DNA of 64,000 nt from Chloroflexota bacterium (GCA_040002615.1 JBDUEE010000003.1:9671-73670), one strand, 5' to 3'; positions 9,441 to 41,411 are shown, numbered from the stretch's first letter. Translations and numbers: made by a program. The notes: a model not told the origin generated them from the sequence alone.

Positions 9441-9471
9441 GGGGTATGCCTTGTCTACCTATGCGTACCCC
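9441..9471. promoter_or_regulatory. 31-bp palindromic operator-like motif GGGGTATGCCTTGTCTACCTATGCGTACCCC, 24 bp upstream of the gene at 9495; near-identical copy upstream of paralog at 41358
   Basis: Inverted repeat GGGGTA(T)GC-N13-GC(G)TACCCC; second copy (minus-strand reading) GGGGTATCCCTTGTCTACCTATGCATACCCC at 41381-41411 differs at 2 of 31 positions while the flanking genes are only ~80% identical. Confidence 0.5.
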
Positions 9472-9494
9472 GCCCTTACTGACAAACTCCACAC

Positions 9495-10436
9495 ATGTCA
9501 TTGGCGAGTGAACTGGTAGTCGGCGGCCTCTGGCGTGACGTGGTCAATTTCGCCGGACCTTCGCCTGCCCCGGCGGTATTCATCCCGCTTCTCGATGCAA
9601 TCGCGCCTAAGTGGAGCCGATGGACGCACTTCATGGGAATGATGGCCGACGTACTCCGCACGCCCGAACATCGACGGGACATTGAAGAGGAGGTCGAATG
9701 GGCGGTGATGGGCTACCGCCTATGGACTGAACATCGTGATGCGATCGAAGGCTGGGCACGTTCCAGCAGTCGCGAGGCCGTCACTGAGGAAGGTATCGAG
9801 AACTGGTGGCTAGGAGGTGAGCGTCAACGTCTCATTGTCGAGGAGCAGACGCACCTAAGAACTTTCCTGAAGCGCGTCCCGTTCACGTCACCCGAGCGAC
9901 GCCTGATTGAAGCCAGCGAGGGCCGACCAGTCCTGATCTACCGCATCCGGGAGCATATGGACTGGATCGGACAGCTGAGCGGCTTCTACAGGATTGCGGA
10001 GAAAACTTGGCCGGCTGACCCAGGGCAGAAGCACCGTTGGACTGAGGATGACCTCGAGTTCGTGAATGCGTACTACCAGGAACAGTCGCCTAGCCTCATA
10101 GCCGACGAGCACAACGGAACTTACGACCCCACTGAGATGGAGAGCGTTAGCTTTGAGGCGGGAATGGGGATGGGCGGGTCCATCGCCCTGTCGTACTGCA
10201 TGTACGTACTGATGCGAGCGGCGGTAGTCGACTTCGCCGACGAGCTGCTGGAGACGACGCGACTCCCATCTGCAAGAGGATCCATGCGCTGCATCGAGTG
10301 TGGCGTCTTCGTGGGTAGGCGAGCCCTCGGCTACGGCCAGCTCTACTGCCGTTCGACCTGCAAGAAGCGGGCGGCCAAACGCCGATATCGTGCTCGAGAG
10401 GCACACGTCCCCGCGGAAGTCGCTGCAGCAGGGTGA
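9495..10436 (+). CDS. hypothetical protein with C-terminal CGNR-like zinc ribbon (module gene A, left copy)
   Basis: 313 aa; C-terminus RCIECGVFVGRRALGYGQLYCRSTCKKRAAKRRYRAR resembles zf-CGNR (CxxC...YCSxxC..RA..R.R); paralog at 40408-41358 on opposite strand. Confidence 0.6.
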   Translation: MSLASELVVGGLWRDVVNFAGPSPAPAVFIPLLDAIAPKWSRWTHFMGMMADVLRTPEHRRDIEEEVEWAVMGYRLWTEHRDAIEGWARSSSREAVTEEGIENWWLGGERQRLIVEEQTHLRTFLKRVPFTSPERRLIEASEGRPVLIYRIREHMDWIGQLSGFYRIAEKTWPADPGQKHRWTEDDLEFVNAYYQEQSPSLIADEHNGTYDPTEMESVSFEAGMGMGGSIALSYCMYVLMRAAVVDFADELLETTRLPSARGSMRCIECGVFVGRRALGYGQLYCRSTCKKRAAKRRYRAREAHVPAEVAAAG

Positions 10437-10440
10437 AGGT

Positions 10441-11430
10441 ATGCGGCCTAACGAGATAGCTGCTGAGATCGAAGCTCAAGCGGCTTTGCTGGTTGATGTG
10501 GCGACTGGCGGGCCTCGCATCGACGATGTCAACGAGGATTACAAGGCGCGACGTCGTCGGATGGTGCCGGAGTTGGTGCGGCGAGGGCTCGAGTACCCGT
10601 TCCCGTGGGCAGATCTCTGGGATTGGTACGAGGCGTACTCCGAAGAGCCAGGAGGCTACCGGGCGAGGCGATCGCGCATTCGCAAGCTGGCGGCCCCGCT
10701 CGTGGAGCGGCTGCACGATTTGGCGTCTGATCCAGGCATCGACGACCTGGGCGCGCTTGGCGAACAGTCCAGCGACTGGACGCAGATCGAGGGACGCCTT
10801 GCGAGCATGCGTCAAGAACTGGCACAGGCGGTCAGCCTCGATGACTTGCAGGATGTTGGGCGGCGATGCCGCGAGGTCGTGATCGATGCCGCCCGTCGCG
10901 TCTTCGACTCCACCATGGTGCCCGAGGGAACAGAAACGCCGGGCAGTAGCGACGCCAAGGCCATGATCGGGCTCTTCCTTGCCTCACGCGCGGGCGGGTC
11001 CTCCAGGCGAGACCTGCGAGCCCTCGTCCGCAGCTCTCACACCTTGATGCAGACGGTGACTCATTCCGCGACGATCACACGGGCCGATGCCATCGCAAGC
11101 GGGTCAGCCGCTGTCCTGATCGTGCGGACACTCCAACAGCTGGAGTCCGAACACGCAAGGATCCAGCCCGTCGTTCGCCCGCGCAGCGGTTCGGCGGTCG
11201 GGCCCCGCAGCGCCCCAGCGGTTCTGCCTCGGCCCGCAACTCCCGCCGCCGAGGCCACACCGGCTGCGACGGAGTGGTCGGCTGGTGATCGCGTGACCCA
11301 TCGTCGATTTGGTGAGGGGATCGTTGTTAGCAGCCGGATAGTGGCCGGAGATGAGGAAGTCACCGTCGCCTTCGTGGGCCAAGGAGTAAAGCGGCTCATT
11401 GCTGAGTTCGCGAACCTCACCCGGAAATGA
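10441..11430 (+). CDS. hypothetical protein with C-terminal UvrD-C/Tudor-like tail (module gene B, left copy)
   Basis: MRPNEIAAEIEAQAALLVDVATGGPRIDDVNEDYK... paralog at 39689-40411; extra C-terminal GDRVTHRRFGEGIVVS...VTVAFVGQGVKRLIAEFANL resembles the small Tudor-like C-terminal domain of UvrD/PcrA helicases. Confidence 0.5.
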   Translation: MRPNEIAAEIEAQAALLVDVATGGPRIDDVNEDYKARRRRMVPELVRRGLEYPFPWADLWDWYEAYSEEPGGYRARRSRIRKLAAPLVERLHDLASDPGIDDLGALGEQSSDWTQIEGRLASMRQELAQAVSLDDLQDVGRRCREVVIDAARRVFDSTMVPEGTETPGSSDAKAMIGLFLASRAGGSSRRDLRALVRSSHTLMQTVTHSATITRADAIASGSAAVLIVRTLQQLESEHARIQPVVRPRSGSAVGPRSAPAVLPRPATPAAEATPAATEWSAGDRVTHRRFGEGIVVSSRIVAGDEEVTVAFVGQGVKRLIAEFANLTRK

Positions 11431-11559
11431 CGAGTGTGTAGAGCGTCACAATCCCGGACCCCGTGCCCCGTCCACAACGGCCGATGGTGCGGTTGCAACA
11501 CGGCTGGCCAGGCTCGAATGCGGTTCGCGTCGACTTCGAGACCGGGCGCATCCATGGAG

Positions 11560-13000
11560 GAGCCGGCGGAGGTCGATCCCCGCCTAAAGGATTAGTGGGA
11601 CGCGGGCTGCCGGTGCGACTCACCGTGGCTGGCGCTGCACGACCGGCTGGAACCCCGACGAGGCGTGTGGCTGCGTCTACGGGCCGTCGGCCAACGCGGT
11701 TGCGTGAGCAACGTCCTGATACACAGTGCGTAACTGACGGCGGCCTTCTCTGGCGTGGGAAGGTGCTCGCGACGGGGACGGGTTGGCCCGGATACGTAGT
11801 GCCCACGGGGTTGGCTCGTTCCTTAACAAGTGCCCCCGTCCCCGGAGCGAGCGGACCGGCCGTGGCCTCATAGGAGCGTGGCTTTGACTCGACGCACTGC
11901 TGCCCGGCCGGCCCACAGCCATCGTACGCGGAGACCAGCCGGAGGTCAGCCATGCCAGCCATCGGGATCGACACCCACAAGCGGACCCTCGCGGCCTGTG
12001 CGGTCGACGCGGTCGGGAGTGTCATCGACGAGCGGACGTTTAGCTGCGACCCGGCGGGCTTCGTCGAGCTGGCAGCCTGGGCCGGTGACGTCGCTCCGGC
12101 GGCGAGGATTGGGGTCGAGGGCTCGGCCTCGTACGGTGCCCCCGTGGCCCACCACCTCATCGCCGTCGGCTTCTCCGTGCGCGAGGTCCCGCCGCAGCTG
12201 AGCCGACGCGAACGAGGGCGCAACCGTCGGCCCGGCAAGAGCGATCCGGGCGATGCCCTCGCGATCGCCCGGGTGACCCTCCGCGAGCCCGACCTGCCGC
12301 CGGTCCGGCTCGAGGACCGCTCGACCGAGCTCGGCCTGCTCGCCGACGCGCGCGACGACCTCGTTCACGCACAGTCCCGGGCCCGCAACCGCCTCCACGC
12401 CCACCTCGTGATCCTCATGCCCGGCTATGGCCGGACGGCCGCCCAGTTGGTCAGCGGTCGCCAGCTCGAGACAATCGAGCGGGCCCTCGGTGGTTCGACC
12501 GGTGTCCGAGCCGAGCTCGCTCGGGCGCTCCTGACGGAGGTCCGTGATCTCGGTCGGCGCGCCGCCGAGCTCGAGCGGTCGATCGCGGCGCTCGTCGCCG
12601 GCCACCCGCTACTCGAGTTGCCGGGCGTCGGAATCCTGACCGCCGCCCGCCTGGTGGCCGAGACCGGTGACGTCGCCCGCTTCCGGTCGCCGGCGGCCTT
12701 CGCGATGCTCGCCGGGGTGGCGCCGATCCCGGCCAGCTCGGGCGAGACGCAGCGGATGCGCCTCAACCGCGGTGGCAACCGGCGGCTGAACCGGGCGCTC
12801 TACACGATCGCCCTCAGCCAGGCCTGGCATCACGAGCCGGCCAAGGCGTACATCGCCCGCAAGCGCGCCAGCGGCAAGAGCTGGGCCGAGGCGTTGCGCT
12901 GCCTCAAGCACCGGGTGGCTCGACCGGTCTTCCGACTGCTCCAAGCGGGTCAGTTGGATTGGGCTCCCGCCGTGTGACAGCCTTCGGGGCATGCCACGAG
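11560..13000 (+). mobile_element. IS110-family insertion sequence (boundaries approximate; IS110 elements lack terminal IRs)
   Basis: Contains DEDD transposase gene 11952-12977 with ~390 bp 5' leader typical of IS110 family. Confidence 0.4.
11952..12977 (+). CDS. IS110-family transposase (DEDD)
   Basis: MPAIGIDTHKRTLAACAVD... and GVGILTAARLVAETGDVARF... motifs typical of IS110/IS1111 transposases; RBS GGAGG upstream. Confidence 0.85.
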   Translation: MPAIGIDTHKRTLAACAVDAVGSVIDERTFSCDPAGFVELAAWAGDVAPAARIGVEGSASYGAPVAHHLIAVGFSVREVPPQLSRRERGRNRRPGKSDPGDALAIARVTLREPDLPPVRLEDRSTELGLLADARDDLVHAQSRARNRLHAHLVILMPGYGRTAAQLVSGRQLETIERALGGSTGVRAELARALLTEVRDLGRRAAELERSIAALVAGHPLLELPGVGILTAARLVAETGDVARFRSPAAFAMLAGVAPIPASSGETQRMRLNRGGNRRLNRALYTIALSQAWHHEPAKAYIARKRASGKSWAEALRCLKHRVARPVFRLLQAGQLDWAPAV

Positions 13001-13056
13001 GCCGTTGCCGCCGTGCAAAGATTGGCGCGACGAGATCAACGAGCAGCGATTGGGAG

Positions 13057-13458
13057 CCCATGACCGAAGATCACCCGAATGCGGCCGCGTACCGACAAGC
13101 CGCCGATGCCTTTCGCGCCGGGGACCTCGCGCGGATCGAGGCCCTCGTTGACCCTCATGTCGTCTGGCACGTTCCGGGTAACCACCCGCGAGCGGGCGAC
13201 ATTCGAGGCCGCGACGCGCTTCTGGCGTGGCTGGCCGGGCTGGCCGAGGTCGGGTTCTGGCTGACGGAGCACGATGTGTTCGCCAACGACGAGCATGTCT
13301 GCGCGCTCAGCAACATGGGCGCTCGTGGACCTGGAACCGACGTCCAGACCCGGGTCGTGAGCATCTTCCACTTCCGGGACGGGCGGCAGGCCGAACGCTG
13401 GTTCTTTCCAGAGGACCCGGTGGCCTGGGACCGGATCTTCGGCGGGACAAGCTCGTAG
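13057..13458 (+). CDS. SnoaL-like / NTF2-like (ketosteroid-isomerase-fold) small protein
   Basis: MTEDHPNAAAYRQAADAFRAGDLARIEALVDPHVVWHVPGNHPRAGDIRGRDALLAWL... pattern typical of SnoaL_2/DUF4440 proteins. Confidence 0.5.
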   Translation, partial: PMTEDHPNAAAYRQAADAFRAGDLARIEALVDPHVVWHVPGNHPRAGDIRGRDALLAWLAGLAEVGFWLTEHDVFANDEHVCALSNMGARGPGTDVQTRVVSIFHFRDGRQAERWFFPEDPVAWDRIFGGTSS

Positions 13459-13693
13459 GTCAGCTTGACAACCATAGGAGCTTGTCAGGTCGTCGTGCAC
13501 ACTACCCGCGCTTCCGCCATGACCAGGTGCTTGTAGCGCAGGTGGTGAAAGGTGTGCGCGGTCGGCGCGACGAGCGCTTGCCTGAAATGGAGCTGGCCGC
13601 CCGTGCCGAGGCCGACCTGGTGGGTCAGGCGGCGCTCGAAACGGAGCCTGGCACGCCGGCGCGGCCACGATGACCTCGGCCAGGTCCCACAAG

Positions 13694-14572: not shown

Positions 14573-14690
14573 CTATTCCCTCTTCCGAATTAGCCAGTCA
14601 CTCTTGCGGGGAGTCTGGTGGGCCGACGAGCGTCAACGGCAAGTATGCCCGATCCTGTAGGCTCGGACGTCCACGCCGAAGGAGGAGTAC

Positions 14691-16301: not shown

Positions 16302-16302
16302 C

Positions 16303-17767: not shown

Positions 17768-17845
17768 ATCAGGTGGTTAAGACACTCAGCCTTCCAAGCC
17801 TGTCGACCTGTGCGCTGTGCTCTGCCGAGCGGGACCCCGAGCGTA
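17768..17845. repeat. imperfect direct repeat (putative attL) matching 51030-51118
   Basis: aatcaggt...gacactcAgccttccaagcCtg..cctgtgcGCtgtgctctGccgagCgGgac aligns to 51030-51118 with ~80% identity and a 22-bp near-identical core (gacactcNgccttccaagc). Confidence 0.35.
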
Positions 17846-17930
17846 ACGCGCGTAGTCATGCGCTCTTCAGTTGCGACCCTCGCTGCGGCCTGCCATTCCC
17901 TCGACAGCGCACGTCGAGGCATCACGGGTA

Positions 17931-18834: not shown

Positions 18835-19300
18835 TCATTCAGCCCCTTTCTTCGCGGACAGGCGGGCGGCCCCTAGCACGACGAGATTGTGGTTCGCCGC
18901 CTTCTTCGCGGCTTTGTCATCGGACTTCTTGGCCGCGGTGAAGAGCTTGTGGGACTGCTTCCATGGTGCGTCGTCGATCCACAGCAAGGCGCAGCCAAGA
19001 TTGTTCTGCTGGCTCGCGGTAGGATCGCCAATCGCCCCGAGCACTGCCGCCACCCAGTCGTTCAATCCACTGGACTGGCCAGCGAGGCCGACGAGATCCT
19101 TCGCATCTCGTTGGTCACCACTTGGCAGCGTGACCATGGATCCCGGCACGACGGTCAGGCCGACGCGCAGCTCGTCGAGGTCGGCTTGGGGACCGAGCAC
19201 AGGGCCGACATCGGCCGCGCGGGTGTCGTAGTAGAGGTCCCGTGAGACGGCGTCCAACTCTTGGAGGTCGATCCCCTCGGAATCCGAACCAATCATCATG
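18835..19300 (-). CDS. hypothetical protein; start ATG overlaps stop of upstream gene (ATGA)
   Basis: MMIGSDSEGIDLQELDAVSRDLYYD...; gcATGAtg overlap with stop of 19297-20963 gene indicates translational coupling. Confidence 0.45.
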
Positions 19301-20963
19301 CGGGTTCCTCCACGGCGAACAACTTGATTAGGGTTGGCGATGCCAGGTCCATGGACCAGACCCGTTCGCTGCCGTCCTCGGACTCTGGCTCGAGATGCCC
19401 AACCCCGTTGAGGGACAGCCGAGCCGGTTCTCCATGCTCCCACCGACTCCAACTAACGGCGAGTACGACGTGGATAGTTGGCGCAGCTGGCTCGTCGGCA
19501 GCTGGCTCGTCGGCAGCTGGCTCGTCGGCAGCTGGCTCGTCGGCGGAGGTGCCTGGTCCTCGCAGCATTGCCTTGAACGTTGTGGCTCGTGGATCCGCGT
19601 TCTTCTCGAGCTCGATCGCCCAACCGGTAGGCTGGCGAACCTCCAGCTTGATCGTGGCAAGCGGAAGGTCGTAGCGCAGCGCGAGCGCGTTGGTAGGCGT
19701 GGCGAGGGTTACGTGCCACATCAGCTCAGAACGTTTCCGTGGCTCGCTACCTGGGATTACCTCCGGCGTCAACTTGCCGATCCCTGCGTCGACCGGCGCC
19801 GCCAACGGTGCAGCGGCGAAGACTCCCGACTGTGCGTCAACGACGCGGACTTGACCTGCAGTCGCTCCGGCGCCCATCCGCTGCTTAGCCGTGACTGTAA
19901 ACAGGTTGGCGCGGTGGACGGCAACTTGCACCGTCCTGTCCGTTCGGCGGGAGGGCACGTGATTCACGACTTCGGCCGCATAGACCTCCGCGACCGCGAG
20001 GTTGGGTGATGGGCTGACACTAACGGCCTTGCTCTCCTTGGGTTCATCAAATAGATCGGCTGTTTTGGTGCCGGGGTACAGGAGGAACCTCGACGCGGAC
20101 TCCCACAGCTTCTTGGCATCAGCGAAGTCTGCCGCCTTGCGGAGTCCGAGTTCGGTCGCCAGCAGATCGCGATGCAGATCAAAGGCGGTCTCAATGAGAT
20201 CACCCCAACCCACGGCCCGGGCGGCCGCAGCGCGGTAACAGCCATATGCAACTGGGATCGCGACGAGGGCGTACGCCGCGCCCTGGAAGCTTCCATTAAC
20301 AGTCTGGACGACCAGGCCCTCGATGCCGAACAGGGCGAATGAAAGCGCGAGGTTGAGGAGCAGATCCAAAGAACCCCTGGCGTCATCGATCAAGCTCGAA
20401 AGTGCGCTGGCCTCCTTCGCAACGAGGGACTGGAGCGGAGGCCAGCACGCGTTCATGTCGATTCCGTACCGCTGGTAGATGGCAGTCGCGGACGATCCGA
20501 GCGCATTTCCGAGTCGCGTGGGCGTCAGCTGCTGCTCATTTGGCCAGCGAGCAATCTCGTAGGCCAACCACCTATCTTCTGCCAAGTCGCTGTTGGTCTG
20601 CGCAAGATCTCGCGCCACCTCTAGGGCCCGTCGCCGCCCGACCGCGCGACCCAGCATCCAGTTGTAGAGGGGAGTTCCTCGCCAAAGCTCGCCCGTCGCC
20701 AGCCGCAGGAACGTCGAGTTCAGAGAAAGGACGACGTACCCAAGGATAAGGATGAGCACGATCAGGACGGCGATCTTGAGCCCGTCAGGCAACGCCTCGA
20801 GCCCAACGGCCGGACCGAATCCCGCGGCGACAAGCGAGGGATGGATGAACAGGGCGTTAAGGAGGATGAAAACGGTTGCGGGTACGATCGCCGATGGTTG
20901 GACGAGCTTCGCCAGACTCGCGTCCACCGTCGTCTTGAAGAACTCGGCTACGGCGGGCAGCAC
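19297..20963 (-). CDS. hypothetical membrane protein containing a 4x tandem ADEPA pentapeptide repeat
   Basis: 555-aa ORF, several TM helices in the N-terminal half; internal ADEPAADEPAADEPAADEPA encoded by the 15-bp x4 DNA repeat. Confidence 0.5.
19486..19545. repeat. perfect 15-bp tandem repeat x4 (agctggctcgtcggc) inside CDS 19297-20963
   Basis: Direct reading of sequence; in-frame (15 bp = 5 codons), encodes ADEPA x4 on minus strand. Confidence 0.9.
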
Positions 20964-21585: not shown

Positions 21586-21617
21586 GAATATTCCTCACAC
21601 ACTTCCTCACACATTGG
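21586..21617. promoter_or_regulatory. conserved upstream motif CTCACACACTTCCTCACACA..GGG.CTTGAT (second copy at 45135-45166)
   Basis: attcCTCACACACTTCCTCACACAttGGGtCTTGAT (21581-21620) vs attaCTCACACACTTCCTCACACActaGGGcTTGAT (45131-45168); each lies upstream of an operon start (21656 and 45867). Confidence 0.45.
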
Positions 21618-21655
21618 GTCTTGATCTTCGATCGTTGGCGCCGTAGCGTGGTGGC

Positions 21656-22985: not shown

Positions 22986-24086
22986 ATGGCTGCCCTCGCT
23001 GCTCGCCTCCGCTCCGCCATCCCGCTGCCGAAGGACGCGAGCGCAGCTGCTGCGAACGTCTCGCCGCTCACGTTGCTCCTACTGGTGCTGGCGCTGGGCG
23101 GCCTCGGGCTCACCGTCACGGGCACGTCGCCCGATGTCCCGGATCAGTCGATCCAGGCGCCCCTCGAGCCCGAGGCCGCCCTCCTACCGCGCGGCGAGCT
23201 GCCCATCATCGGCGACCCGATCCGCGACCTGACGATCTGGTACGCCCAACGCGTCAGCGACGCCAACCGCGCCGCCGTCGAGAACCTGCGCGGCCGCTTC
23301 CTGACCCCGGTGGATCCGCTGTCCGATCAGGCCACGACGGACCTATACGGCAAGATGCTGGTCATCACCATCCCGCTGCTGACCCTCGGCGGGCTGGTCC
23401 TGGGTTACCTGATCATGGTCGCCCGCACCACCGGCGAGTCCGCCTACGCCGTCCGCGCGGTGACGCCGCGCTTCGTGGTCGGCGCCGTCCTCTCGATCTG
23501 CGGCATCTTCCTCGTCAGCGTGCTGGCCCAGTTCGTGATCGCCACCGACCTCGCCATGGTCGGCATCTCGCTCCGTCCGGAGTCGGTCGGCGCTGCCGAG
23601 CAGTGGCCGGCCGGGGGCGGGGTATTCATGGTCCTGCAGCGCGGTGGCTTCGACCCGCGCATCGGCGAGGGTCCCGCCAACTGGAACTCGGGCGCCTGGC
23701 TCAGCTCCGGGTTGCTGGCCGGGGTACTGATGACGTTCCTGCAGATGATGAACGCGGTGCTCGGCGCGGTAGAGCGCCTGCTGGTGCTGCTCGCCCCGAT
23801 CTGCCTGGCCGCCTATGCCCTGCCCGCCACGCAGCGTCTGGCCAACCTGTGGCTCAAGCTGCTGGCGGCGATCCTGGCGGTGCGCTTCGGCTGGGCGATG
23901 GTGTTCATCCTGTTCAGCCTCCAAGTGCCGGCGCATCTCGACGGGGCATCGGTGCCGATGACGGTGGATGACACCAACGCCCTGATCGGGCTGGCCCTCG
24001 GGGCGGCGGCGCTGATGCTGGTCCTGCCGCCGGTCCTGGTGAACCTGGTGCTCAACTCGCCGGGGCCGATACGGGTCGAACAATGA
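22986..24086 (+). CDS. polytopic membrane protein, candidate VirB6/TrbL-like channel component
   Basis: 366 aa, ~6-7 TM helices, position in T4SS-like operon; no sequence-family match. Confidence 0.35.
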   Translation: MAALAARLRSAIPLPKDASAAAANVSPLTLLLLVLALGGLGLTVTGTSPDVPDQSIQAPLEPEAALLPRGELPIIGDPIRDLTIWYAQRVSDANRAAVENLRGRFLTPVDPLSDQATTDLYGKMLVITIPLLTLGGLVLGYLIMVARTTGESAYAVRAVTPRFVVGAVLSICGIFLVSVLAQFVIATDLAMVGISLRPESVGAAEQWPAGGGVFMVLQRGGFDPRIGEGPANWNSGAWLSSGLLAGVLMTFLQMMNAVLGAVERLLVLLAPICLAAYALPATQRLANLWLKLLAAILAVRFGWAMVFILFSLQVPAHLDGASVPMTVDDTNALIGLALGAAALMLVLPPVLVNLVLNSPGPIRVEQ

Positions 24087-32312: not shown

Positions 32313-33005
32313 AGAACCAACCGTGGGGCGTACGTCGCCATCTTCGTCGTGGCCAGCCTGGTCGCCGCCGGGGTCTACTACCTGGCACAGCCGCGCGCCG
32401 ACGTGGTCCGCGCCCGCGCCGACATCGCCGTCCTGACGCTCGTCACCGCCGACATGGTCGAGGTCGTCAGGGTCAGCCCCGGTGACCGATCTGACGACGC
32501 CGCGACATCGATCGCCGACGTCGTCGGGCAGTACGCCGCCATGCCGATCCTAGCCGGGCAGTTCGTCGACCGCCGCGCTCTGGAGTCGACCCCCGGCGCG
32601 CAGGCCTTTGGCTTCGGCGCGCCATTGCCTCCCGACCATGTCGCCTTCGCCATCGCGGTCGAGCCGGCGCAGGCGGTGGGCGGTGCGCTGACACCCGGCG
32701 CCCTCATCGACGTCATCGCGGTGCCCAACGCGCTCAAGACGCTGCCCGCCGACGTCGAGTCGGTGCCGGAGGCGACGGTGCTCGGCGAAGGCCTCGTCGT
32801 GCTGGCCTTGCGCAGCGTCGACGGCAGAGCGCTGACCGACCCCGCCGCCAGCACGCAGAGCGTCACCAGCCTGCCGCCGCGGCTGGGCAGCGTGGTGGTC
32901 GCCGTGCCCGCCGCCGAGCTTCCCGACTTTGCCAGCGCGTCACTGACCTCGACGTTGTACCTGGCGCTCAACGGCCAGGCTGATGGGGAGCCAGCCTCGC
33001 CGTGA
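32310..33005 (+). CDS. cpaB: CpaB/RcpC-like Flp pilus assembly protein (TM + SAF domain)
   Basis: MRTNRGAYVAIFVVASLVAAGVYYL (TM) then ADIAVLTLVTADMVEVVRVSPGDRSDDA...GQFVDRRAL (SAF-like). Confidence 0.6.
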   Translation: MRTNRGAYVAIFVVASLVAAGVYYLAQPRADVVRARADIAVLTLVTADMVEVVRVSPGDRSDDAATSIADVVGQYAAMPILAGQFVDRRALESTPGAQAFGFGAPLPPDHVAFAIAVEPAQAVGGALTPGALIDVIAVPNALKTLPADVESVPEATVLGEGLVVLALRSVDGRALTDPAASTQSVTSLPPRLGSVVVAVPAAELPDFASASLTSTLYLALNGQADGEPASP

Positions 33006-35209
33006 GAGCGCTCATGCGCCGCGCAGCGCGGCCGGCGGCCAAGGCCGCGGATCCGACGCCCTGGCCGTCGCTATCGGCGGACGCCGAGCTCGTCCACGCC
33101 GATGGGCAGCTGCTGGCCGGGTTCGAGCTCGGGCCGCTCAATCTGGAACTGCTCGCTGAAGCCGAGCGAGAGGCATCGCTGGAGGCGCTGGCCGCCCTGT
33201 ACGACGCCATCCCGCGTCCGTTCCAGCTGCTGTCAGTACCCGCTGCGCGCGACCCGAACGACCACCTGGCGCACATGCAGGCCGTCGTCGCCGGTCGTCG
33301 TGCCAAGACCGCGTTCGCCTCCTACGCAGCGCTGTACCGCGAGCTGGCCGCCGCGCCGCGGCGTCCATTGCGGGCCACCTATCTGATCGTCGGCGCCGGT
33401 TCCGAGGCCGAGCTGCGGCGGATCGCCGAACTGGTGCGCCGCGTCGGGGAGGAACGTGGCGTGGAGCTGCGTCACCTGACCGGCGCCGAGCTGACCGAGC
33501 TGTGGGCAACCCTCGCCGGAGCCGGGAGTGAGCACCGGCTTTCGGTCCACACCGCGAATGGCGAGGGAGTCCTGGCTGGTCTTGTGTTCGGCCGCCGCTG
33601 GCCGTCGCAGGTGCCGCCCGGTTGGCTGGCAGGCCTGCTGGCAACGCCGGGGCTGACGGCGTTGTCGATGCGCGCGCCGCCGCTGTCGCGCGCCGAGGCG
33701 ATGAGCTTCATGACCGCCCGCCTGCGGCATGCACGCGCCGGCGAACGGCTGGCCTCCGAACGCGGCGAGGTCGAGGATCCCGAGCGACAGCGGATCGGCG
33801 CCACTGCGCTCTCGGCGCGGCGCGCGACGCAGGCCGGGCAGGGCCGCATCTACTTCGCCGACACGGTTCTGCTGATTGCGGCGCCCGACCGCGCCACCCT
33901 CCACGAGCGGATCGAGGCGGTTCGCCTCGAGGCCCGCAGCCAGCAGCTCGAGGTCGAACTCGCCAGCTTCCGCATCGACCAGGCCTGGCAGAGTGCGCTG
34001 CCGGGTCCGCATCCCCGTCCGCTTGCCGAGCGCAACCTCGATACGCCCAGCCTCGCCGCCAGCCTGCTGCACACCAGCTCCGACCTGTACGAGCCGACCG
34101 GTCACCTGTACGGCCGGCAACGCTCGTCTGGGGCGCCGATCGTGCTCGACCGCTTCGCGCGGCCCAGCCACAACGCCATCGTGCTGGGTCAGACCGGCAC
34201 TGGCAAGACCATGTTCACCGGCGCCGAGATGAGCCGCTGCTTTCTGCGCGGCATCCGCGTGCTGGGCGTCGATCCGCTGGGCGATTTCCGGCGCCTGGCA
34301 GAGGAGTTGGGCGGGACCTATCTGGAGCTCGGCGCGCCCGGCGTCGGGCTCAATCCGTTCACGCTGACCGGAGCCGGCGATCCAGGCGCCTTCAGCGCCA
34401 AGCTGGCGATGCTGTCACGGCTCGTTGGCGCCATGGCCGGAGGGCTGAGCCGCGACGAGCGTCCGGCGCTCGACCGAGCACTGCGAGCAGCCTACCAGTC
34501 GGCGCGTATCGGCCCCGACCCGGCCACCTTCGATCGGCAGGCGCCTATGTTGGCCGACCTCGTCAACCACCTCGCCGGCGAGGCCGGCGGCACCTCGCTG
34601 ACGCACCGCCTCGAGCGCTGGGCGACCGGTTCGCTGGCCGACGTGCTCGGCAGCAACGTTGATGTGCCGCTCGATCGACGCATGCTGGTCATCGGGCTAG
34701 CGGCGATCGGCGATCCAGAGGTCCGCGCGGTCGCGCAGTACGCCGCACTGAGCGTCCTGTGGGACGCCGTCCGGCGCGACCTGGCGCCCAAGCTGGTCGT
34801 GGTTGACGAGGCTTGGAAGGTCATGCGCCAGCCGTCGGGGGCCGACTTCGTCGAGGAGCTGGCGCGCTCGGCGCGCCACTACCACGCCGGCCTGCACCTG
34901 GCCACGCAGGACATCGTCGAATTCCTGCGCTCTGACTATGGCGAGTCGATCGTCAAGCAGTGCGACATCAGGGTCTTGCTGGGCCAGACGCCGGAGGCCG
35001 CCGACTCGCTGACGCGCTACTTCGACCTGACTCCCGCCGAGCGCCGCGCCCTGCTGCACGCGCGGCCCGGCGAGGGTCTTCTGTTCGTCGGTGGTTCCCA
35101 CGCCGCCTTTGAGGCAACCGTCAGCCGCCGCGAGTACGCCGTGCTCACCACCCGGCCGGCTGACCTGATCCAACCCGCTTTGAGAGAGCCAACCCCCGAT
35201 ACCTCGTGA
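33002..35209 (+). CDS. virB4: VirB4/TrbE/CagE-family T4SS ATPase
   Basis: Walker A LGQTGTGKTM, Walker B LVVVDEAWKVM (DEAW hallmark), TQDIVEF motif; ~400-aa N-terminal VirB4 domain; GTGA overlap with cpaB. Confidence 0.8.
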   Translation: MRALMRRAARPAAKAADPTPWPSLSADAELVHADGQLLAGFELGPLNLELLAEAEREASLEALAALYDAIPRPFQLLSVPAARDPNDHLAHMQAVVAGRRAKTAFASYAALYRELAAAPRRPLRATYLIVGAGSEAELRRIAELVRRVGEERGVELRHLTGAELTELWATLAGAGSEHRLSVHTANGEGVLAGLVFGRRWPSQVPPGWLAGLLATPGLTALSMRAPPLSRAEAMSFMTARLRHARAGERLASERGEVEDPERQRIGATALSARRATQAGQGRIYFADTVLLIAAPDRATLHERIEAVRLEARSQQLEVELASFRIDQAWQSALPGPHPRPLAERNLDTPSLAASLLHTSSDLYEPTGHLYGRQRSSGAPIVLDRFARPSHNAIVLGQTGTGKTMFTGAEMSRCFLRGIRVLGVDPLGDFRRLAEELGGTYLELGAPGVGLNPFTLTGAGDPGAFSAKLAMLSRLVGAMAGGLSRDERPALDRALRAAYQSARIGPDPATFDRQAPMLADLVNHLAGEAGGTSLTHRLERWATGSLADVLGSNVDVPLDRRMLVIGLAAIGDPEVRAVAQYAALSVLWDAVRRDLAPKLVVVDEAWKVMRQPSGADFVEELARSARHYHAGLHLATQDIVEFLRSDYGESIVKQCDIRVLLGQTPEAADSLTRYFDLTPAERRALLHARPGEGLLFVGGSHAAFEATVSRREYAVLTTRPADLIQPALREPTPDTS

Positions 35210-36212: not shown

Positions 36213-38555
36213 ATGGCCGTTGAGTTCCCGATTCCCTACGAGCTGTTCCTGATCGTGCCGGCGCTGTTCGGCGCAGCGGTGCTCGCCGTCCAGCTGGGTC
36301 CGCGCCTCGTCGCCGCCCGCCGCCAGGCGGCATACGAGCGGGTGATCGCTACCGAGCTCGAGCGGCTCGAGATCGCGGTCCCCGCCAATCAGCGTCTCGA
36401 CCCCGATACGCCGGTCGAGCTCATCCGCGCCCTCCATCCCCGACAACGGCGCGGCGTCGACCGTTGGGCGGTGGGGTGGCCGCCGTTCGAGGTTCGCGTG
36501 GTGGCTAGCGACGGCGAGCTGGCCTGGCAGGTCGACGCCCCGCGCCAGCTGAGCCATCAGCTCATGGCGGCCGTGCGCAGCCTGTATCCGGGCAGCGAGA
36601 TTGCCAAAATTGAACGCGGGGAAGCCGCGGCGACCGCGACGGCGGTCGGTAGCCTGGCCGCTCCTGGTCACTGGCCGCTGGGCGATCCGGCTGAGCCCGG
36701 ACGGGCGCTGGTTCAGCTCGCAGCGCTGCTCGAACAGTCACCGCTCGATCACGGTGAAGTACGACTGCGGCTCCTCGCCAAGCCGATCGCGCCCGAGAGC
36801 TGGCAGCGCGACCTGTATCCCGAGGAGCAGCGTGGGCGCTCGTTCGGGAGCATCGCCGGCGAGGCGCTGCTGGACGCGATCTTCAACCGCCCCAGCAGCA
36901 TCGGCCACGACGTTCCGGTCGTGCTGTCCGCCGCCGAGCGGGAGGCGCGATCGCGCAAGCGGGTGGCGCAGGTCGGGTTCGAGGTCGGGATGCTGCTCGA
37001 AGTTGCAGGACTCGACGTCGCCGAGGCCAAAGCCCTGCTGTGGCAGCTGATCGACTTCGCCGACGCCGTCGGTGACGGGCGCCAGGCGATCGCCTGGACC
37101 ATCCGGCCCGGAGCGGTCGAACGTCCGCGCCGCGCGCCGTTGGGCGACTGGGAGCTCGCCAAACTGTGGCGCCTGCCGGACGCCGCCTTCGACGACGCCC
37201 ATCTCCAGCGCCAGCGACCGATGATCGGACCGACCCCGGCATCCGCGCCGCGCGGCGGGCTCATCACCATCGGCGAGACGCGCCAGGGAGCCCTGCAGCT
37301 CAGCGTCGAGCAACTCGCGCGCCACATGCTGGTGGTGGGCGCCACCGGCGCCGGCAAGAGCACGATGCTCGTCGATCTGGCGCTGGGTGTGCTGGACACG
37401 CCCATCGGGGCGACCGTGATCGACCCGCATGGCGACCTGGCCACCGACATCCTGAGTCGCGTTCCCGCACAGCACGCCGACCGGGTGCGAGTGCTGCGCC
37501 TGGCGGACAAGGCCCATCCGCGGGGGTTCAACTTCCTCGAGCGTGCCGATCTCGACGAGGCGCAACTAGTGGCAAGCGAGTTCGTGGCTCTGTTCGAGGA
37601 TCTGTGGCCCAAGTTCTGCGGCCCCAAGATGGCGCACTACCTGCGCAAGTCGCTGCTCACCATGCTGTCGCACCCCGAGCCGCAGACAGTGATCGAGCTG
37701 GTCCGGCTGCTGACCGACGACGACCTGCGCGAGAACGAGTACATGCGCTACGTCGCGGGCGACCCGCTGCTGTTCGACTTCTGGCGCAACGAATGGCCGT
37801 CGCGCAGCGCGCGCGAACACGACAGCTCGATCAAGGCGGTCCTGAACAAGCTCGGCGCGTTCGTCAGCTACCACTCGATCCGCCACGTCGTGGGCCAGGG
37901 CGTCAGCTCGCTGCGCCCGCGCGACGTGATGGATCGCGGCGACCTGCTGGTGGTCGATCTATCCCGCGTCGGCGGCGACAACGCCAGCCTGTTCGGTGCG
38001 ATGCTCATCGGCCGCTACTACATCGACGCCGTCGGCCGTCAGGGAACGGCAATTGGCGAACGTCGTCAGCACCTGCTCATCGTCGACGAGGCGCAGCGCT
38101 TCAGCACCCGCGCCATGGACAAGATCCTGGTCGAGGGTCGCAAGTTCGCCCTGGCCGGTGTGCTGGCCACCCAGTCACTGCATGGGGCCGATCGGCGCCT
38201 GCACGACACGATCGTGACCAACGTTGCCACCATGGCCCTGCTGTCGCCGGGTGCCGATGACGCCAGGGAGCTGGCACGCCTCTTCACCCCGCTGGGCGAA
38301 ACCGATCTGCTGGCGCTGCAGCGTCACGAGTTCGCGTTGCGCATGCCCGGTACCGACGACCGCCCGGCGGTCTATGGCGGACGGGTGCGGCTGCCCGCCG
38401 CCGGAGACCCAGCTCGAGCCGCCGCTCTCGTGGCCGCCAGCGACCAGCGCGACGGTCGCCCACTCGAAACGGTCCGGGGCGAGGTGCATCGCCGCGCGGG
38501 AGGCGACCGCGACGACCGACCGCCGAACGCGGTCAGCGACGATCGGGCGCGATGA
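36213..38555 (+). CDS. type IV coupling-protein-like ATPase (VirD4/TraG-TraD or HerA/FtsK-like DUF87 family)
   Basis: Walker A HMLVVGATGAGKSTML, DPHGDL, Walker B LLIVDEAQRF, VLATQS; N-terminal TM; 780 aa. Confidence 0.65.
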   Translation: MAVEFPIPYELFLIVPALFGAAVLAVQLGPRLVAARRQAAYERVIATELERLEIAVPANQRLDPDTPVELIRALHPRQRRGVDRWAVGWPPFEVRVVASDGELAWQVDAPRQLSHQLMAAVRSLYPGSEIAKIERGEAAATATAVGSLAAPGHWPLGDPAEPGRALVQLAALLEQSPLDHGEVRLRLLAKPIAPESWQRDLYPEEQRGRSFGSIAGEALLDAIFNRPSSIGHDVPVVLSAAEREARSRKRVAQVGFEVGMLLEVAGLDVAEAKALLWQLIDFADAVGDGRQAIAWTIRPGAVERPRRAPLGDWELAKLWRLPDAAFDDAHLQRQRPMIGPTPASAPRGGLITIGETRQGALQLSVEQLARHMLVVGATGAGKSTMLVDLALGVLDTPIGATVIDPHGDLATDILSRVPAQHADRVRVLRLADKAHPRGFNFLERADLDEAQLVASEFVALFEDLWPKFCGPKMAHYLRKSLLTMLSHPEPQTVIELVRLLTDDDLRENEYMRYVAGDPLLFDFWRNEWPSRSAREHDSSIKAVLNKLGAFVSYHSIRHVVGQGVSSLRPRDVMDRGDLLVVDLSRVGGDNASLFGAMLIGRYYIDAVGRQGTAIGERRQHLLIVDEAQRFSTRAMDKILVEGRKFALAGVLATQSLHGADRRLHDTIVTNVATMALLSPGADDARELARLFTPLGETDLLALQRHEFALRMPGTDDRPAVYGGRVRLPAAGDPARAAALVAASDQRDGRPLETVRGEVHRRAGGDRDDRPPNAVSDDRAR

Positions 38556-38590
38556 ACGCGCTGGGTCAGGCTTGCGCGTGGACGGTAATT

Positions 38591-38630
38591 GGGACGCCAA
38601 AGGGGGCGCCAAAGGGGGCGCTGACGCGCG
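38591..38630. repeat. 12-bp direct tandem repeat cgccaaaggggg x2 embedded in a dyad gggacg...cgctgacgcgcgc; candidate oriT/nic region upstream of Replic_Relax gene
   Basis: gggaCGCCAAAGGGGGCGCCAAAGGGGGcgctgacgcgcgcaataaacg read directly; in the 130-bp gap between T4CP gene and relaxase-like gene. Confidence 0.45.
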
Positions 38631-38688
38631 CAATAAACGTCCACCAGATCAGTTCGCGGCTGTGGGTCGATCAGAGGGAATGCTCTCG

Positions 38689-39630
38689 ATGAGTGCGGCC
38701 TTCCGCAGCGGTGATGTGCACTCGCGCTCGCACCCGCGTCGAGTCGACCTCGCGGCGCTACCCGCCCGTGACCGCGCCGTGCTGCGCCTGCTGTACCGCA
38801 TGGAAGCAGCGACCGCACGCCAGCTCACCGACCTCGCCTACCGGCGAGCACGCAAGGGGCAGTACCGTCTGCAACAGCTCTGGCGTCTGCGCCTCACCGA
38901 GCGGACCTCCGTAGCGACCGACCACGCTGGCGCTCCGCCCTACGCACACCGTCTGACCTACCACGTGCGCCAGCGCCTCGGCTACCGAACCCGTCGACCG
39001 CAGCTCAGCAGTCGCCTGCGCCACCTCCTCGATAGCCACGACGTGGTATGCGCGTTGGCGCAGCCCATCCCCGACGCACCGGATGGACCGATGCAGGCCT
39101 GGCTGACGGCTCCGATGGCGGGCAGGGTCCTCGGCAGTGCGATCGAACCGGACGGCGTGGTCATCCTCCAGCTCAAGAAGCGGTCCGCCGTCGTGTGCAT
39201 CGAGCTCGACGAAGGTACCGAGCACCATCCGGTCATCATCGACAAGCTCGAACGCTACGCGGCCCAGCTCCGCGATCGGGGTAGCTGGCACCTGCTGCTC
39301 GTCGTTCCTGGGCGCGACCGGTTGGCACGCGTGCGACGCCTGGCCCGACGGCCGGGTCTCGAAATGCGCGGGCACGCGTGGGTCACGCTGCTGGCGGACG
39401 TCCGAAGACGCGGCCTCAATGCGGACGCCCATCCCGCCTGGTCGGTGGACGGTCCTGTCGCGCTCGCCGACCTGATCGATGACCAGCGCGACCGAAGCTC
39501 GGCTGCGCCCGTTGCCAGCGATGCGTGGCTCGACCTGTTGGCCACCGGCGGCGTAGAGGACTTCGACAGAATTCTCGCCGGAACGGCGAGCCTGGCCGTT
39601 TCCGCTCTCGAGCAGGGTCACAACGGCTAG
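38689..39630 (+). CDS. Replic_Relax (replication-relaxation) family protein, putative relaxase/initiator of the element
   Basis: wHTH-like N-terminus LPARDRAVLRLLYRMEAATARQLTDLAYRRARKGQYRLQQLWRLRLTER...GAPPYAHRLTYHV and LRHLLDSHDVVCAL motif typical of PF13814 proteins of actinobacterial plasmids/ICEs. Confidence 0.55.
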   Translation: MSAAFRSGDVHSRSHPRRVDLAALPARDRAVLRLLYRMEAATARQLTDLAYRRARKGQYRLQQLWRLRLTERTSVATDHAGAPPYAHRLTYHVRQRLGYRTRRPQLSSRLRHLLDSHDVVCALAQPIPDAPDGPMQAWLTAPMAGRVLGSAIEPDGVVILQLKKRSAVVCIELDEGTEHHPVIIDKLERYAAQLRDRGSWHLLLVVPGRDRLARVRRLARRPGLEMRGHAWVTLLADVRRRGLNADAHPAWSVDGPVALADLIDDQRDRSSAAPVASDAWLDLLATGGVEDFDRILAGTASLAVSALEQGHNG

Positions 39631-39688
39631 CAGACACACAACGCGCGTTCATCTTGGACCTCGACCAGATTGCGCCTACCGGCGCCAA

Positions 39689-40411
39689 TCAGAAAAGTGT
39701 GCTGCGCTCCGCTTCCTGAAGGATGCGGACGAGGGAGATGGTTGCCTGTGCGGTCGCGAAGGCCATGAGGCGTGTCGGCGCCTTGTGATGAGTCAGAGCG
39801 TTTGCCAGGACGATGAGCTTGCGGATGAGGCCCCGAACCGCCGAGTTGGCGGCGCCGCTCAGCATCATGTCTGCGTAGAAGCCGAGTCGCTCCTCGGCAT
39901 CGGATCGTCCCGGGATCGGTTGGCCTGCCGGCACCATCACATCCATGAACGCGACGTTTGCAGCCTCAATGACGATCTCCCGGCACCGCCGTCCGATGTC
40001 GGCCCAGTCGTCGGTCGAAGTGCCGCGCTCCAGCTCACCGATCATCTCAGCCAACCGCGCATCCACCGTCTTCCACGTTGGATCACCAACGGACCCGGTG
40101 TCATCCGGAACCTGGGCAGCAGCAGCGCGCGCCTCAAGATCATCCAGGAGTGGTCCGACGAGCTCGTTGATCTGGGCGCGCCGGTCTGCGTAGCCGTCCG
40201 CCCAGGCTCGATACCACTCCCAGAGGCTGCGCCATGGGAACGGATCGGCCAGGCCGATCGCGTCCAGAGAGAAGCGCAACTCACGGCGCCGCTCCTGATA
40301 TCCATCGTCTACGTCGTCGATGCGCGGCCCGCCCGTCGCCACGGCGATGAGCAAAGCAGCCTGTTCCTTGACGAGGTCAATCAAGTCGTCGAGGGAGCGA
40401 GCGGTCTTCAT
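39689..40411 (-). CDS. module gene B, right copy (paralog of 10441-11430, lacks Tudor-like tail)
   Basis: MKTARSLDDLIDLVKEQAALLIAVATGGPRIDDVDDGYQERRREL... aligns along its length with left copy (~50-60% aa identity). Confidence 0.5.
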   Translation of the reverse strand: MKTARSLDDLIDLVKEQAALLIAVATGGPRIDDVDDGYQERRRELRFSLDAIGLADPFPWRSLWEWYRAWADGYADRRAQINELVGPLLDDLEARAAAAQVPDDTGSVGDPTWKTVDARLAEMIGELERGTSTDDWADIGRRCREIVIEAANVAFMDVMVPAGQPIPGRSDAEERLGFYADMMLSGAANSAVRGLIRKLIVLANALTHHKAPTRLMAFATAQATISLVRILQEAERSTLF

Positions 40412-41358
40412 GATGCGGCCTCGATCTGCCTCGGGGCAGCGGAGGACCGAGCCCGATAGCGCCGCTTGGCTGCTCGCTTCTTGCAGGTCGTACCGCAGTA
40501 GAGCTGGCCGTATCCGAGAGCGCGTCGGCCGACGAAGACCCCGCAATCAACGCAGCGCATCGATCCCCGCGTCGTCGGCAGCCGGGTCGTTTCCAGCAAC
40601 TCGTCGACAAAGTCGATGACAGCGGCTCGCATCAAGACATACATGCGGTAGGAGAGGGCGACCGAGCCGCCCATCCCCATGCTTGCCTCGAAACTGATGC
40701 TCTCCAGCGAGGTGGGGTCGTAGGTGCCGTCTTTCTCCTCGGCGTGGAGGCTTGGGGATTGCTCCTGGTAGTAGGCGTTGATGAACTCCAGGTCGTCCTG
40801 AGTCCACCCATCCCTTTGACTGGGGTCGGCAGGCCAGGTCTTCTGTGCCACTTCGTAAAGGCCACCAAGCTGGCCTATCCAGTCCAGATGCTCGCGTAAC
40901 CGGTAGACGAGAAGTGGCTTGTCGCCGCTAGCGATCATCGCATCGACGCGACGTCGCTCGGCCGGGGTGATTGGGACCCGCTTGAGGAAACCTCGGAGGT
41001 GCGTGTGCTCCTCAACGATGAGAACCTGGCGCTCACCTCCGAACCACCAGTCCTCGATCTCCTCGTTCGTCATGGGGTGGCGAGTACTGGCGTGCGCCCA
41101 GCTGGTGATCGCGTCGCGATGCTCCGTCCAAAGCCGGTGTCCTATCACCGCCGACTCGACTTCCTGCTCAATCTCCAGGCGGTTCTCGGAAGTACGCAGT
41201 ACGTCGGCCATCATTCCCATGAAGTACGTCCAGCCGCTCCATCGCGGGGAGACCGCATCAAGGAGCGGGAGGTATATCCCTGGCGTCGGTGACGGACCGG
41301 CAAAGTTGACGACATCGCGCCAGAGGCCACCTGTCGTAAGCGGAGTCATCGAAGGCAT
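40408..41358 (-). CDS. module gene A, right copy (CGNR-like zinc-ribbon protein; paralog of 9495-10436)
   Basis: MPSMTPLTTGGLWRDVVNFAGPSPTPGIYLPLLDAVSPRWSGWTYFMGMMADVLRT... ~75% aa identity to left copy, same C-terminal Cys motif. Confidence 0.6.
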   Translation of the reverse strand: MPSMTPLTTGGLWRDVVNFAGPSPTPGIYLPLLDAVSPRWSGWTYFMGMMADVLRTSENRLEIEQEVESAVIGHRLWTEHRDAITSWAHASTRHPMTNEEIEDWWFGGERQVLIVEEHTHLRGFLKRVPITPAERRRVDAMIASGDKPLLVYRLREHLDWIGQLGGLYEVAQKTWPADPSQRDGWTQDDLEFINAYYQEQSPSLHAEEKDGTYDPTSLESISFEASMGMGGSVALSYRMYVLMRAAVIDFVDELLETTRLPTTRGSMRCVDCGVFVGRRALGYGQLYCGTTCKKRAAKRRYRARSSAAPRQIEAAS

Positions 41359-41380
41359 GCGGGTAGTTTGTCAGGGCCGA

Positions 41381-41411
41381 GGGGTATGCATAGGTAGACA
41401 AGGGATACCCC
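41381..41411. promoter_or_regulatory. second copy of 31-bp palindromic operator-like motif (GGGGTAT-N17-ATACCCC), 22 bp upstream of gene A right copy
   Basis: ggggtatgcataggtagacaagggatacccc on plus strand; perfect 7-bp inverted arms. Confidence 0.5.

Follow-up and report, generated by a model that had tools for sequence, protein, structure and literature searches.

A conserved 31-bp box upstream of an unannotated zinc-ribbon protein gene is probably a promoter-embedded regulatory site heading variable defence-type operons in Chloroflexota

Far less is understood about how defence systems are regulated than about how they work, and we know of no dedicated regulator that has been described for Wadjet. 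Here we describe a 31-bp palindromic element, which we call the A-box, together with the gene that follows it, gene A, both of which occur twice and in inverted orientation in a 64-kb stretch of DNA from a Chloroflexota bacterium (the window, meaning the whole stretch that was analysed; 66.7% G+C). The closest described systems are the WYL regulators BrxR and CapW which, like A, are encoded by the first gene of variable defence operons (BREX, restriction-modification (RM), Wadjet and others), with BrxR binding to inverted-repeat operators, formed by imperfect inverted repeats, at its own promoter and causing repression (PMC9122601). The A-box is likewise located at the putative promoter of its own gene, with A as its predicted binder, and as is also the case for R-BOX1 and R-BOX2 of BrxR, one of its half-sites is better conserved than the other (PMC9122601). 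A second parallel is RptR of RM/DarTG islands, which has an inverted-repeat operator at its own promoter, and where, as with A, the regulator and the site are both highly conserved and linked to the defence system, with the site positioned in the island's own promoter (PMC12255303).

The A-box and its gene differ from these systems on several counts. BrxR and CapW contain a winged helix-turn-helix (HTH) and a WYL domain, whereas A has neither (no Pfam, NCBIfam, PADLOC or PDB fold match) and instead has an unmatched helical fold and a zinc ribbon. The A-box, 31 bp in length, has 11-bp arms on either side of a 9-bp centre and hardly changes between proteins that are only 31% identical, whereas BrxR operators vary between homologues. 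The RptR site consists of 6-bp TAGCTA palindromes arranged as three direct repeats, unlike the 31-bp A-box, and RptR is a small regulator of another protein family from Gammaproteobacteria, in contrast to A which is ~320 aa long with a large extra domain (PMC12255303). The ParB-parS and KorB-OB systems share with the A-box a palindrome beside the gene of its presumed binder that is far more conserved than the protein over a wide phylogenetic range. However, A has no ParB or HTH fold and no partner ATPase, and those systems form centromere-like arrays whereas the A-box is single and in a fixed promoter geometry. By analogy, A would resemble BrxR, CapW or RptR in function and not in ancestry. 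The regulatory logic is known in kind, the molecular implementation is without a described counterpart, and a literature search found no paper on the A protein family or on the box motif.

In the window each copy of A is followed by a second gene, B. The elements of the two modules are given below in window coordinates; L- and P-numbers used further on denote comparison loci and homologous proteins, respectively.

9441-9471, plus strand: left A-box, GGGGTATGCCTTGTCTACCTATGCGTACCCC, an imperfect palindrome with the core GGGTA...GTC...C.ATG..T.CCCC
9480-9488, plus strand: putative left extended -10 element, TGA + CAAACT, which is the CTGACAAACT block, 11 nt past the box and 6 nt before the ATG
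9495-10436, plus strand: gene A-left (A), 313 aa, identical to NCBI ABJC24_00130 (hypothetical protein, Chloroflexota metagenome-assembled genome (MAG))
10260-10394, plus strand: tail of A-left, residues 256-300, RGSMRCIECG...YCRSTCKKRAAKRRYR, zinc ribbon and basic helix, the proposed DNA-binding element
10441-11430, plus strand: gene B-left (B), 329 aa, a ~240-aa helical core, a disordered linker and a C-terminal Tudor domain
41411-41381, minus strand: right A-box, GGGGTATCCCTTGTCTACCTATGCATACCCC, with perfect 7-bp outer arms
41365-41373, minus strand: putative right extended -10 element, TGA + CAAACT, 10 nt past the box and 6 nt before the ATG at 41358
41358-40408, minus strand: gene A-right (A'), 316 aa counted from the first ATG, NCBI ABJC24_00290 (whose start is 3 codons downstream of that ATG)
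40411-39689, minus strand: gene B-right (B'), 240 aa, the B core without a Tudor tail

These four open reading frames (ORFs) and the inverted orientation of the two modules are as a preliminary description of this DNA had given them, though its figure of ~75-80% nucleotide identity between the modules was too high. BLASTN aligns 9441-10557 with 41411-40283 at 72% nucleotide identity, in an alignment that opens at the first base of the 31-mer and dies out ~120 nt into B, and a global alignment gives 70.5% identity from the box onward. At the protein level, A-left and A-right are paralogues with 70% amino acid identity, and B-left and B-right are only 42% identical. The junction between A and B is a 4-nt gap in the left module, and in the right module the start of B-right overlaps the stop of A-right by 4 nt. 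Relatives from other loci are closer: A-right is 74% identical to P0003 (L008) and A-left is 83% identical to P0002, with corresponding values of 77% for B-right against B of L008 and 83% for B-left against B of L005/L007. The window modules are of two different subtypes, apparently carried as separate accessory cargo.

The left and right boxes match at 29 of 31 positions, which was reached by none of 100 shuffled windows, and each sits 23-24 bp 5' of its A gene. A near-identical 31-mer upstream of both A genes is therefore real, as had been claimed, and the CTGACAAACT block described as following it is present at both copies. The 7-bp inverted repeat that had been described as perfect is so only in the right copy, with the left copy pairing at 6 of 7 positions and having a T opposite a G. 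Across the family the symmetry consists of 11-bp arms around a 9-bp centre and is perfect in L008 (GGGGTATGCAT-TGTCTATCT-ATGCATACCCC). The box had also been described as better conserved than the coding sequence. Within the left-right pair this is not unique to the box, since two coding patches (~9619-9631 and ~10332-10339) also reach 29-30/31 between the window modules. In the 60 bp immediately 5' of the box, identity between the window loci falls to 36% (global alignment). Judged from this pair alone, the box is among the best-conserved stretches and not uniquely so, and it is the cross-locus comparison that is decisive. The window contains only these two boxes, and apart from one chance-level half-site at 23619-23631, inside a coding region, no further boxes or half-sites within the window link the conjugation genes that lie between the modules to the same regulator.

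We gathered homologue DNA in three ways (exact-protein look-up, a genome scan and an unbiased DNA-pattern scan) and compared 15 independent A loci. The box was found in all 15 of these loci, and so wherever DNA upstream of A was available, without indels and down to 31% protein identity. Specifically, it is kept at A identities of 83-71% (L007, L005/6, L008) and also at identities of 56-31% (L018, L019, L012, L009, L002, L020, L003, L023, L013, L022). Over the 15 loci, 17 of the 31 positions are invariant (G2-A6, G13-T14-C15, C19, A21-T22-G23, T26 and C28-C31), and the information content, calculated from the first 12 loci, is 1.63 bits per position in the box, whereas the 50 bp 5' of it carry 0.28 and the opening 37 bases of the coding sequence 0.34. 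The outer arms, GGGTA/TACCC, show a single substitution, in L022, and are otherwise invariant, and the left arm is degenerate in its inner part. Almost no variation is seen in the central GTC or in the promoter-proximal arm CTATGCATACCCC, and the distal inner arm drifts among TATGC, TATCC, TACCC and TACGC. When a metagenome contig collection was scanned with a degenerate box there were three matches, all three of which are immediately 5' of A homologues; a box scan of viral contigs gave 0 matches, and a profile search of genome contigs with A gave only 4 loci. The preliminary description had proposed a functional operator bound by a dimeric regulator and a search for the 31-mer in other genomes. 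That search finds the 31-mer at A homologues, and the fixed geometry at all of these loci supports it as a selected, functional non-coding DNA element that is tied to gene A and is most plausibly an operator for a protein within the A promoter; the part of the proposal that involves a symmetric dimer fits less well.

A separate observation concerns L022, where the box occupies 469-499 and the called gene 489-1481, with the called start codon of P0077 falling within the box (ctATGCATCCCCC). The P0077 gene model is almost certainly too long, and a GTG located 5 nt past the -10-like hexamer matches the family geometry.

The sequence between the box and gene A is also constrained. A hexamer follows the box that has A at position 2 in 15/15 loci and usually has T at position 6 (variants include CAAACT, CAGACT, GACACT, TAGGCT, TATACC and others), and it is preceded by a TGn in which G is present in 15/15 and T in 12/15 loci. 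The spacing from the box to this TGn/hexamer is 11 nt in the family and 10 nt in the right window copy, and in 12/15 loci the start codon lies 5-6 nt past the hexamer. There is no Shine-Dalgarno sequence, nor any room for one between the hexamer and the start codon. We infer from this pattern that TGn + NANNNT is an extended -10 element, and the A mRNA is probably leaderless with a predicted transcription start at or next to the start codon (9495 in the left copy). This would place the box at about -54 to -24 with its centre near -39, so that it would overlie the position where a -35 hexamer is missing; TATGCR, which would stand at -35 to -30, matches the consensus at only 3/6 positions.

A word-indexed search for relatives of A gave 79 proteins, most of which are unnamed, with the named ones being nearly all 'hypothetical protein', and no Pfam domains were present among them. 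An exhaustive profile search of 1.84 billion representatives gave 71 clusters at 50% identity. The AlphaFold2 model of A-left (pLDDT 87.5, pTM 0.85) has an all-helical body followed by a C-terminal zinc ribbon with four cysteines (C4) and a basic helix. No structural match to the helical body was found by Foldseek against the PDB or against BFVD, and the annotation searches gave nothing past a generic small zinc ribbon with a weak YacG or treble-clef resemblance. Conservation is concentrated in the tail, where column identity over residues 256-300 is 84% versus 48-60% (about 50%) in other segments of the protein, and where pairwise identity to A-left has a mean of 78% (minimum 62%) versus a mean of 41% (minimum 26%) for the N-terminal domain. 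The tail consensus is RGSLRCxECGxFVGRRALGYGQLYCxxxCKKRAAKRRYR, with C266, C269, C285, C289, K290, R292, K295-R297 and R299 being invariant. This tail had been called a CGNR-like zinc ribbon, and the zf-CGNR/ABATE proteins (PF11706) do share with A a C-terminal C4 zinc ribbon and basic tail that end a larger helical protein in high-GC Gram-positive-type bacteria. However, A is not a member of that family, as the zf-CGNR motif is C-GNR versus C-KKR-AAKRRYR in A, and the isolated tail scores 9.2 bits against a cutoff of 24 (E = 1.4) with the full protein giving no match. The best weak match of the tail is to DUF2116 'probable treble clef' (16.5 bits versus a cutoff of 26.8).

Since the neighbours of A differ completely between loci, no candidate other than A accompanies the box throughout. 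Furthermore, if the tail reads the site, both should be nearly frozen, as the DNA site and the adjoining basic zinc-ribbon tail are. The likeliest binder of the box would be A itself, as the preliminary description had suggested, acting through its zinc ribbon and basic helix.

A is operonic with whatever gene comes next; at the P0012 locus, for example, the two overlap by 4 nt. This partner is B in the window and in L005/6, L007 and L008. A different partner, type III Wadjet, occurs in three diverged lineages:

L019, 6001-12912: A and its box heading a type III Wadjet operon
L023, 4309-11352: A and its box heading a type III Wadjet operon
P0012 locus: A and its box heading a type III Wadjet operon, with the same gene sizes

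For L019 and L023, respectively, the matches are E = 2.6e-110 and 8.1e-116 for JetA3 and E = 2.4e-199 and 3.3e-105 for JetC3, with JetB3 also matched in L019 (E = 7.5e-5). JetA3 and JetC3 are in operon order in both loci, whose contigs end before any JetD, and L023 has two extra genes between A and jetA (351 aa, and 581 aa with an HTH_31 domain). L009 and L012 instead have an unrelated protein of 210-220 aa after A; these downstream genes were considered as remote B homologues and rejected on comparison. In L018, A comes after a PDC-S06 ATPase, and an Abi_C protein is in the neighbourhood. The A-adjacent ATPases of L018 and of the window were likewise compared as possible members of one family, and they are not closely related. 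Finally, no clear partner of A was seen in L003, L002 and L020. A is most likely an autoregulated controller or sensor that heads interchangeable defence-type cargo.

In regards to protein B, the left copy carries a UvrD-type Tudor tail that is absent from B-right, as had been described. Residues 282-326 of B-left (nt 11284-11418) match the PcrA/UvrD Tudor family PF21196 at 44.2 bits versus a cutoff of 23.9, and Foldseek matches this tail to 5dma with a probability of 1.0 (range of 0.98-1.0 over 5dma, 7egs and 9dqs). The tail is thus a bona fide member of the family represented by PDB 5dma, 6yi2 and 7egs. In PcrA/UvrD this domain is found on helicases, whereas in B it is joined to a HEPN-like helical protein that is not a helicase, and in one B subtype only. 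PcrA/UvrD-type helicases have C-termini with 60-85% identity to the tail, and several of these helicases are named by sources as Limnocylindria or Binatia MAG proteins, which suggests that it may be a recently captured host domain that binds RNA polymerase (RNAP), as the Tudor domain of PcrA/UvrD does (titles of PDB 6yi2 and 7egs). The B core gave only weak Foldseek matches to 2q00, 4nqf, HEPN toxins and Csm6 (E 0.3-2.5, probability 0.4-0.96, target-normalised TM 0.4-0.64). Inspection of the alignment did not find the HEPN Rx4-6H motif in B; the conserved H208 (VTH) is without a conserved R 4-6 residues upstream, and the conserved GRRCRE motif of B is not an Rx4-6H. The B core also occurs without A. 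In L015 (5087-5848) it is found on its own, in an island of a Blastococcus genome that also has an integrase-like gene and DUF4145, and in L016 (581-8741) it is last in an operon after a type IIG restriction-methylase, an unknown protein, a HerA-like ATPase and a methyltransferase.

The reading that we favour, to which we assign a probability of roughly 60%, is that the A-box is a promoter-embedded cis-regulatory site, probably read by A, that heads variable defence-type operons, with its placement on both sides of the conjugation genes being incidental. The box would be built into the A promoter and inherited together with A, and transcription would run from the extended -10 element, starting at or beside the start codon just downstream of the box. 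An oligomer of A would occupy the box via its C-terminal zinc ribbon and basic helix. Where a mobile defence-type operon has an extended -10 promoter with a palindrome over its -35, the usual meaning is autorepression, and class-II activator sites are centred where the A-box would be, near -39. The predicted binding of A would most likely repress the A operon, with activation in the class-II style being less likely. A would thereby control, or sense for, a cargo that is either the HEPN-like B with or without its RNAP-binding Tudor, type III Wadjet JetABC, or small unknown proteins.

Several observations weigh against this reading. The box is asymmetric, with an invariant right half and central GTC and a variable left arm, and a simple symmetric dimer fits such a site less well; its outer half-sites are also unusually far from each other, with 24 bp between their centres. 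A scan for consensus sigma-70 promoters called no canonical -35/-10 pair at A promoters, and in L020 the called start codon is ~69 nt past the box, which indicates a leader in at least one clade. No DNA-binding family was found for A by Pfam, NCBIfam, PADLOC and PDB sequence searches or by PDB and BFVD fold searches. Finally, a box centre near -39 and an absent -35 would also suit a class-II-type activator.

A more far-reaching proposal, which we regard as tentative and would not expect to hold in most outcomes, is that A and the box constitute a previously undescribed class of defence-operon controller, in which a helical, sensor-like domain unmatched in structure searches is joined to a zinc ribbon that reads DNA, and that switches on or holds off interchangeable effectors, among them type III Wadjet and a HEPN-like protein tethered to RNAP, with an operator that stayed near-unchanged as A diverged to ~30% identity. 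In a bolder form of this proposal, the A-box nucleoprotein complex would be more than a switch of transcription and would itself be part of defence, for example as a self-mark or as a loading or roadblock site for the adjacent SMC-type Wadjet motor.

It is unlikely, though worth weighing, that the box is read by a factor other than A, such as a host factor or an alternative sigma or RNAP-associated factor that replaces the missing -35, with A not involved. The lack of a usable -35 hexamer, the site centre at a position typical of class-II activator sites, and the polarity given to the box by its invariant promoter-proximal half and central GTC are all consistent with such a factor. However, a site belonging to a host regulon should also turn up at other genes, whereas the box occurs only upstream of A, as seen for the three unbiased matches and for the sole two sites in the window. 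It also moves with A across Chloroflexota MAGs and one MAG labelled Bacillota in very different neighbourhoods, and the only other element conserved in all loci beside the box is A's own tail.

We consider it improbable that the box serves site-specific recombination, as a dif/pdif-like or cassette-attachment-like site marking the mobile end of the module, with the inverted pair able to flip the 32-kb segment. This would account for the resemblance of 11-bp arms and a short centre to tyrosine-recombinase core sites, for homology between the window modules and their orthologues that runs from 1-4 bp before the box to the B stop codon, for a XerC-like recombinase gene at 50066-51010, and for the integrase fragment that lies just 5' of the box in L020/L021. 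However, pdif-type modules are flanked on both sides and recombination sites have a centre of 6-8 bp, whereas there is a single box per module with none at the distal end and its centre is 9 bp. In the comparison of L005 with L007 (88% nucleotide identity) homology extends 94 bp past the box, so there is no synteny breakpoint there, and at 72-81% nucleotide identity neutral flanks are unalignable, such that a homology edge at the box is expected of any constrained element. Recombination also leaves unexplained the strict spacing of box, -10 and start codon in the 15 loci, and the window copies are old, distinct subtypes. Nor do the boxes have the layout of the direct end repeats (att) of an integrative and conjugative element, as they are inverted instead and are separated from the integrase gene by 8.7 kb and from the point where the conjugation operon starts by 11 kb.

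We see very little chance that the box is transcribed and works as an RNA hairpin in the 5' untranslated region, whether as a riboregulator, a protein-binding RNA or a stability element. The boxes of close relatives do fold strongly (-20.2 kcal/mol, z -6.6 in L008; -21.5 kcal/mol, z -3.9 in the left window copy), and the T-to-G change in the left copy would preserve a G-U pair, but the hairpins of the right window copy, L009, L018 and L019 are no more stable than shuffled sequence. Across 12 aligned loci there are 0 compensatory changes in the 11-bp stem; 4 of its 11 pairs vary, each only by disruption, the paired fraction is not above that of column shuffles, and the covariation score was reached by 500/500 shuffles. 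Furthermore, conservation of the loop GTC and of the unpaired flanks equals that of the arms, Rfam gives no match with E allowed up to 10, and the -10-like element sits downstream of the box, not upstream. The constraint is on sequence and not on base pairing, as expected of a DNA site that is bound by protein.

The presence of two inverted copies on one MAG contig could be cited for a pair derived from a single module, by recent local duplication or as an artefact of assembly, but this has a negligible probability given that the copies share only 72% nucleotide and 42% B protein identity with Tudor in one only, that each is closer to an orthologue from another metagenome than to its window partner, and that divergence this large is incompatible with repeat collapse or mis-joining. 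Assembly artefact, which the preliminary description had named as a way in which the paralogy could fail, is excluded at this level of identity.

The favoured reading treats the placement of the two modules around the conjugation genes as incidental. The main features of the segment between them are as follows.

11952-12977: IS110 transposase, between the left module and the conjugation operon
~22.6-39.6 kb: conjugation operon, with a PrgI-like protein, CpaF/TadA, TadB/C and RcpC/CpaB pilus-type proteins and an M23/SLT hydrolase
33002-35209: VirB4-like ATPase, within the conjugation operon
36213-38555: coupling protein, within the conjugation operon
38224-39630: Replic_Relax relaxase, within the conjugation operon

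The right module adjoins the 3' end of the conjugation operon and the left module is 11 kb away from it, with SnoaL-like, peptidase-like and beta-lactamase-like genes and two Phd/YefM-type genes also located in between. The modules and their immediate neighbours have a G+C content of 62-65% versus 69-72% for the conjugation operon, a contrast that fits a mosaic origin. The mirror-image placement had been suggested to reflect a segment-scale inversion or duplication, or else a paired boundary function. Neither suggestion is supported. The modules are of two different subtypes, each with a closer orthologue elsewhere, and did not arise by local duplication or inversion. Single A modules occur elsewhere, in unrelated contexts without conjugation genes, and the left module lies at a distance from the operon. 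The inverted placement of the modules around the conjugation genes therefore appears to be incidental.

The window also contains two imperfect direct repeat pairs, neither of which coincides with the boxes. An 85-bp repeat (17780-17864 and 51054-51137, 76% identity), whose right copy is 44 bp past the stop of the XerC-like gene, is a candidate that may represent a degenerate att pair; there is no tRNA in the window. A 36-nt repeat (21590-21625 and 45133-45168) is identical at 32 of 36 positions, 20 nt of which are exact, and contains CTCACACA twice. Both of its copies are intergenic, the left one just 5' of the Phd/YefM genes that open the conjugation operon and the right one between a TrlF-type ATPase gene and a ubiquitin-like operon, and the repeat could be a second operator if it is not a candidate att pair around 23.5 kb. 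Besides the intact recombinase gene there is a further, partial Phage_integrase ORF that lies at 52754-53635 and shares a 104-bp stretch of 78% identity with the intact recombinase gene (50819-50922 versus 53285-53382); it looks like the remnant of another integrative element.

Both window A modules face an upstream gene of unknown or defence-like function. Divergent from A-left is a DUF4238 protein (8399-9226, minus strand, 275 aa) that has no PADLOC match. Divergent from A-right is a 956-aa TrlF-family AAA-like ATPase (41780-44650, plus strand; NCBIfam NF045780, 573 bits versus a cutoff of 350), which resembles Ppl and other anti-phage ATPases more weakly; searching the literature for TrlF gave only unrelated spectroscopy papers. 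Beside the integrase, a cassette for bacterial ubiquitin-like conjugation (Bil-like; 45867-50060, plus strand) codes for a ThiS-like ubiquitin-like protein, a Prok-E2_D-like protein, a 279-aa unknown protein, a ThiF-type E1 and an AAA_16 protein, with PADLOC giving no match for the three members that were run. Elsewhere, a perfect tandem repeat at 19483-19542 with a 15-nt unit (GCAGCTGGCTCGTCG, ~4 copies) lies inside a 555-aa ORF (19296-20963, minus strand) that has no Pfam match. Finally, a protein of >1830 aa with Big_7, CBM96, disaggregatase-repeat and RHS-repeat domains (3-5495, minus strand) runs off the window and adjoins the left side of this mobile and defence-rich region.

For the biology of the window, these results mean that the bracketing of the conjugation region is no structural feature of the mobile element. 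For the family, A (~320 aa, from an unannotated family) and its exactly defined 31-bp site form a compact, testable pair, and the extreme conservation of the site makes it usable for motif-based annotation of Chloroflexota MAGs. This pair recurs before type III Wadjet operons as well as before a HEPN-like protein with what may be a captured PcrA/UvrD Tudor.

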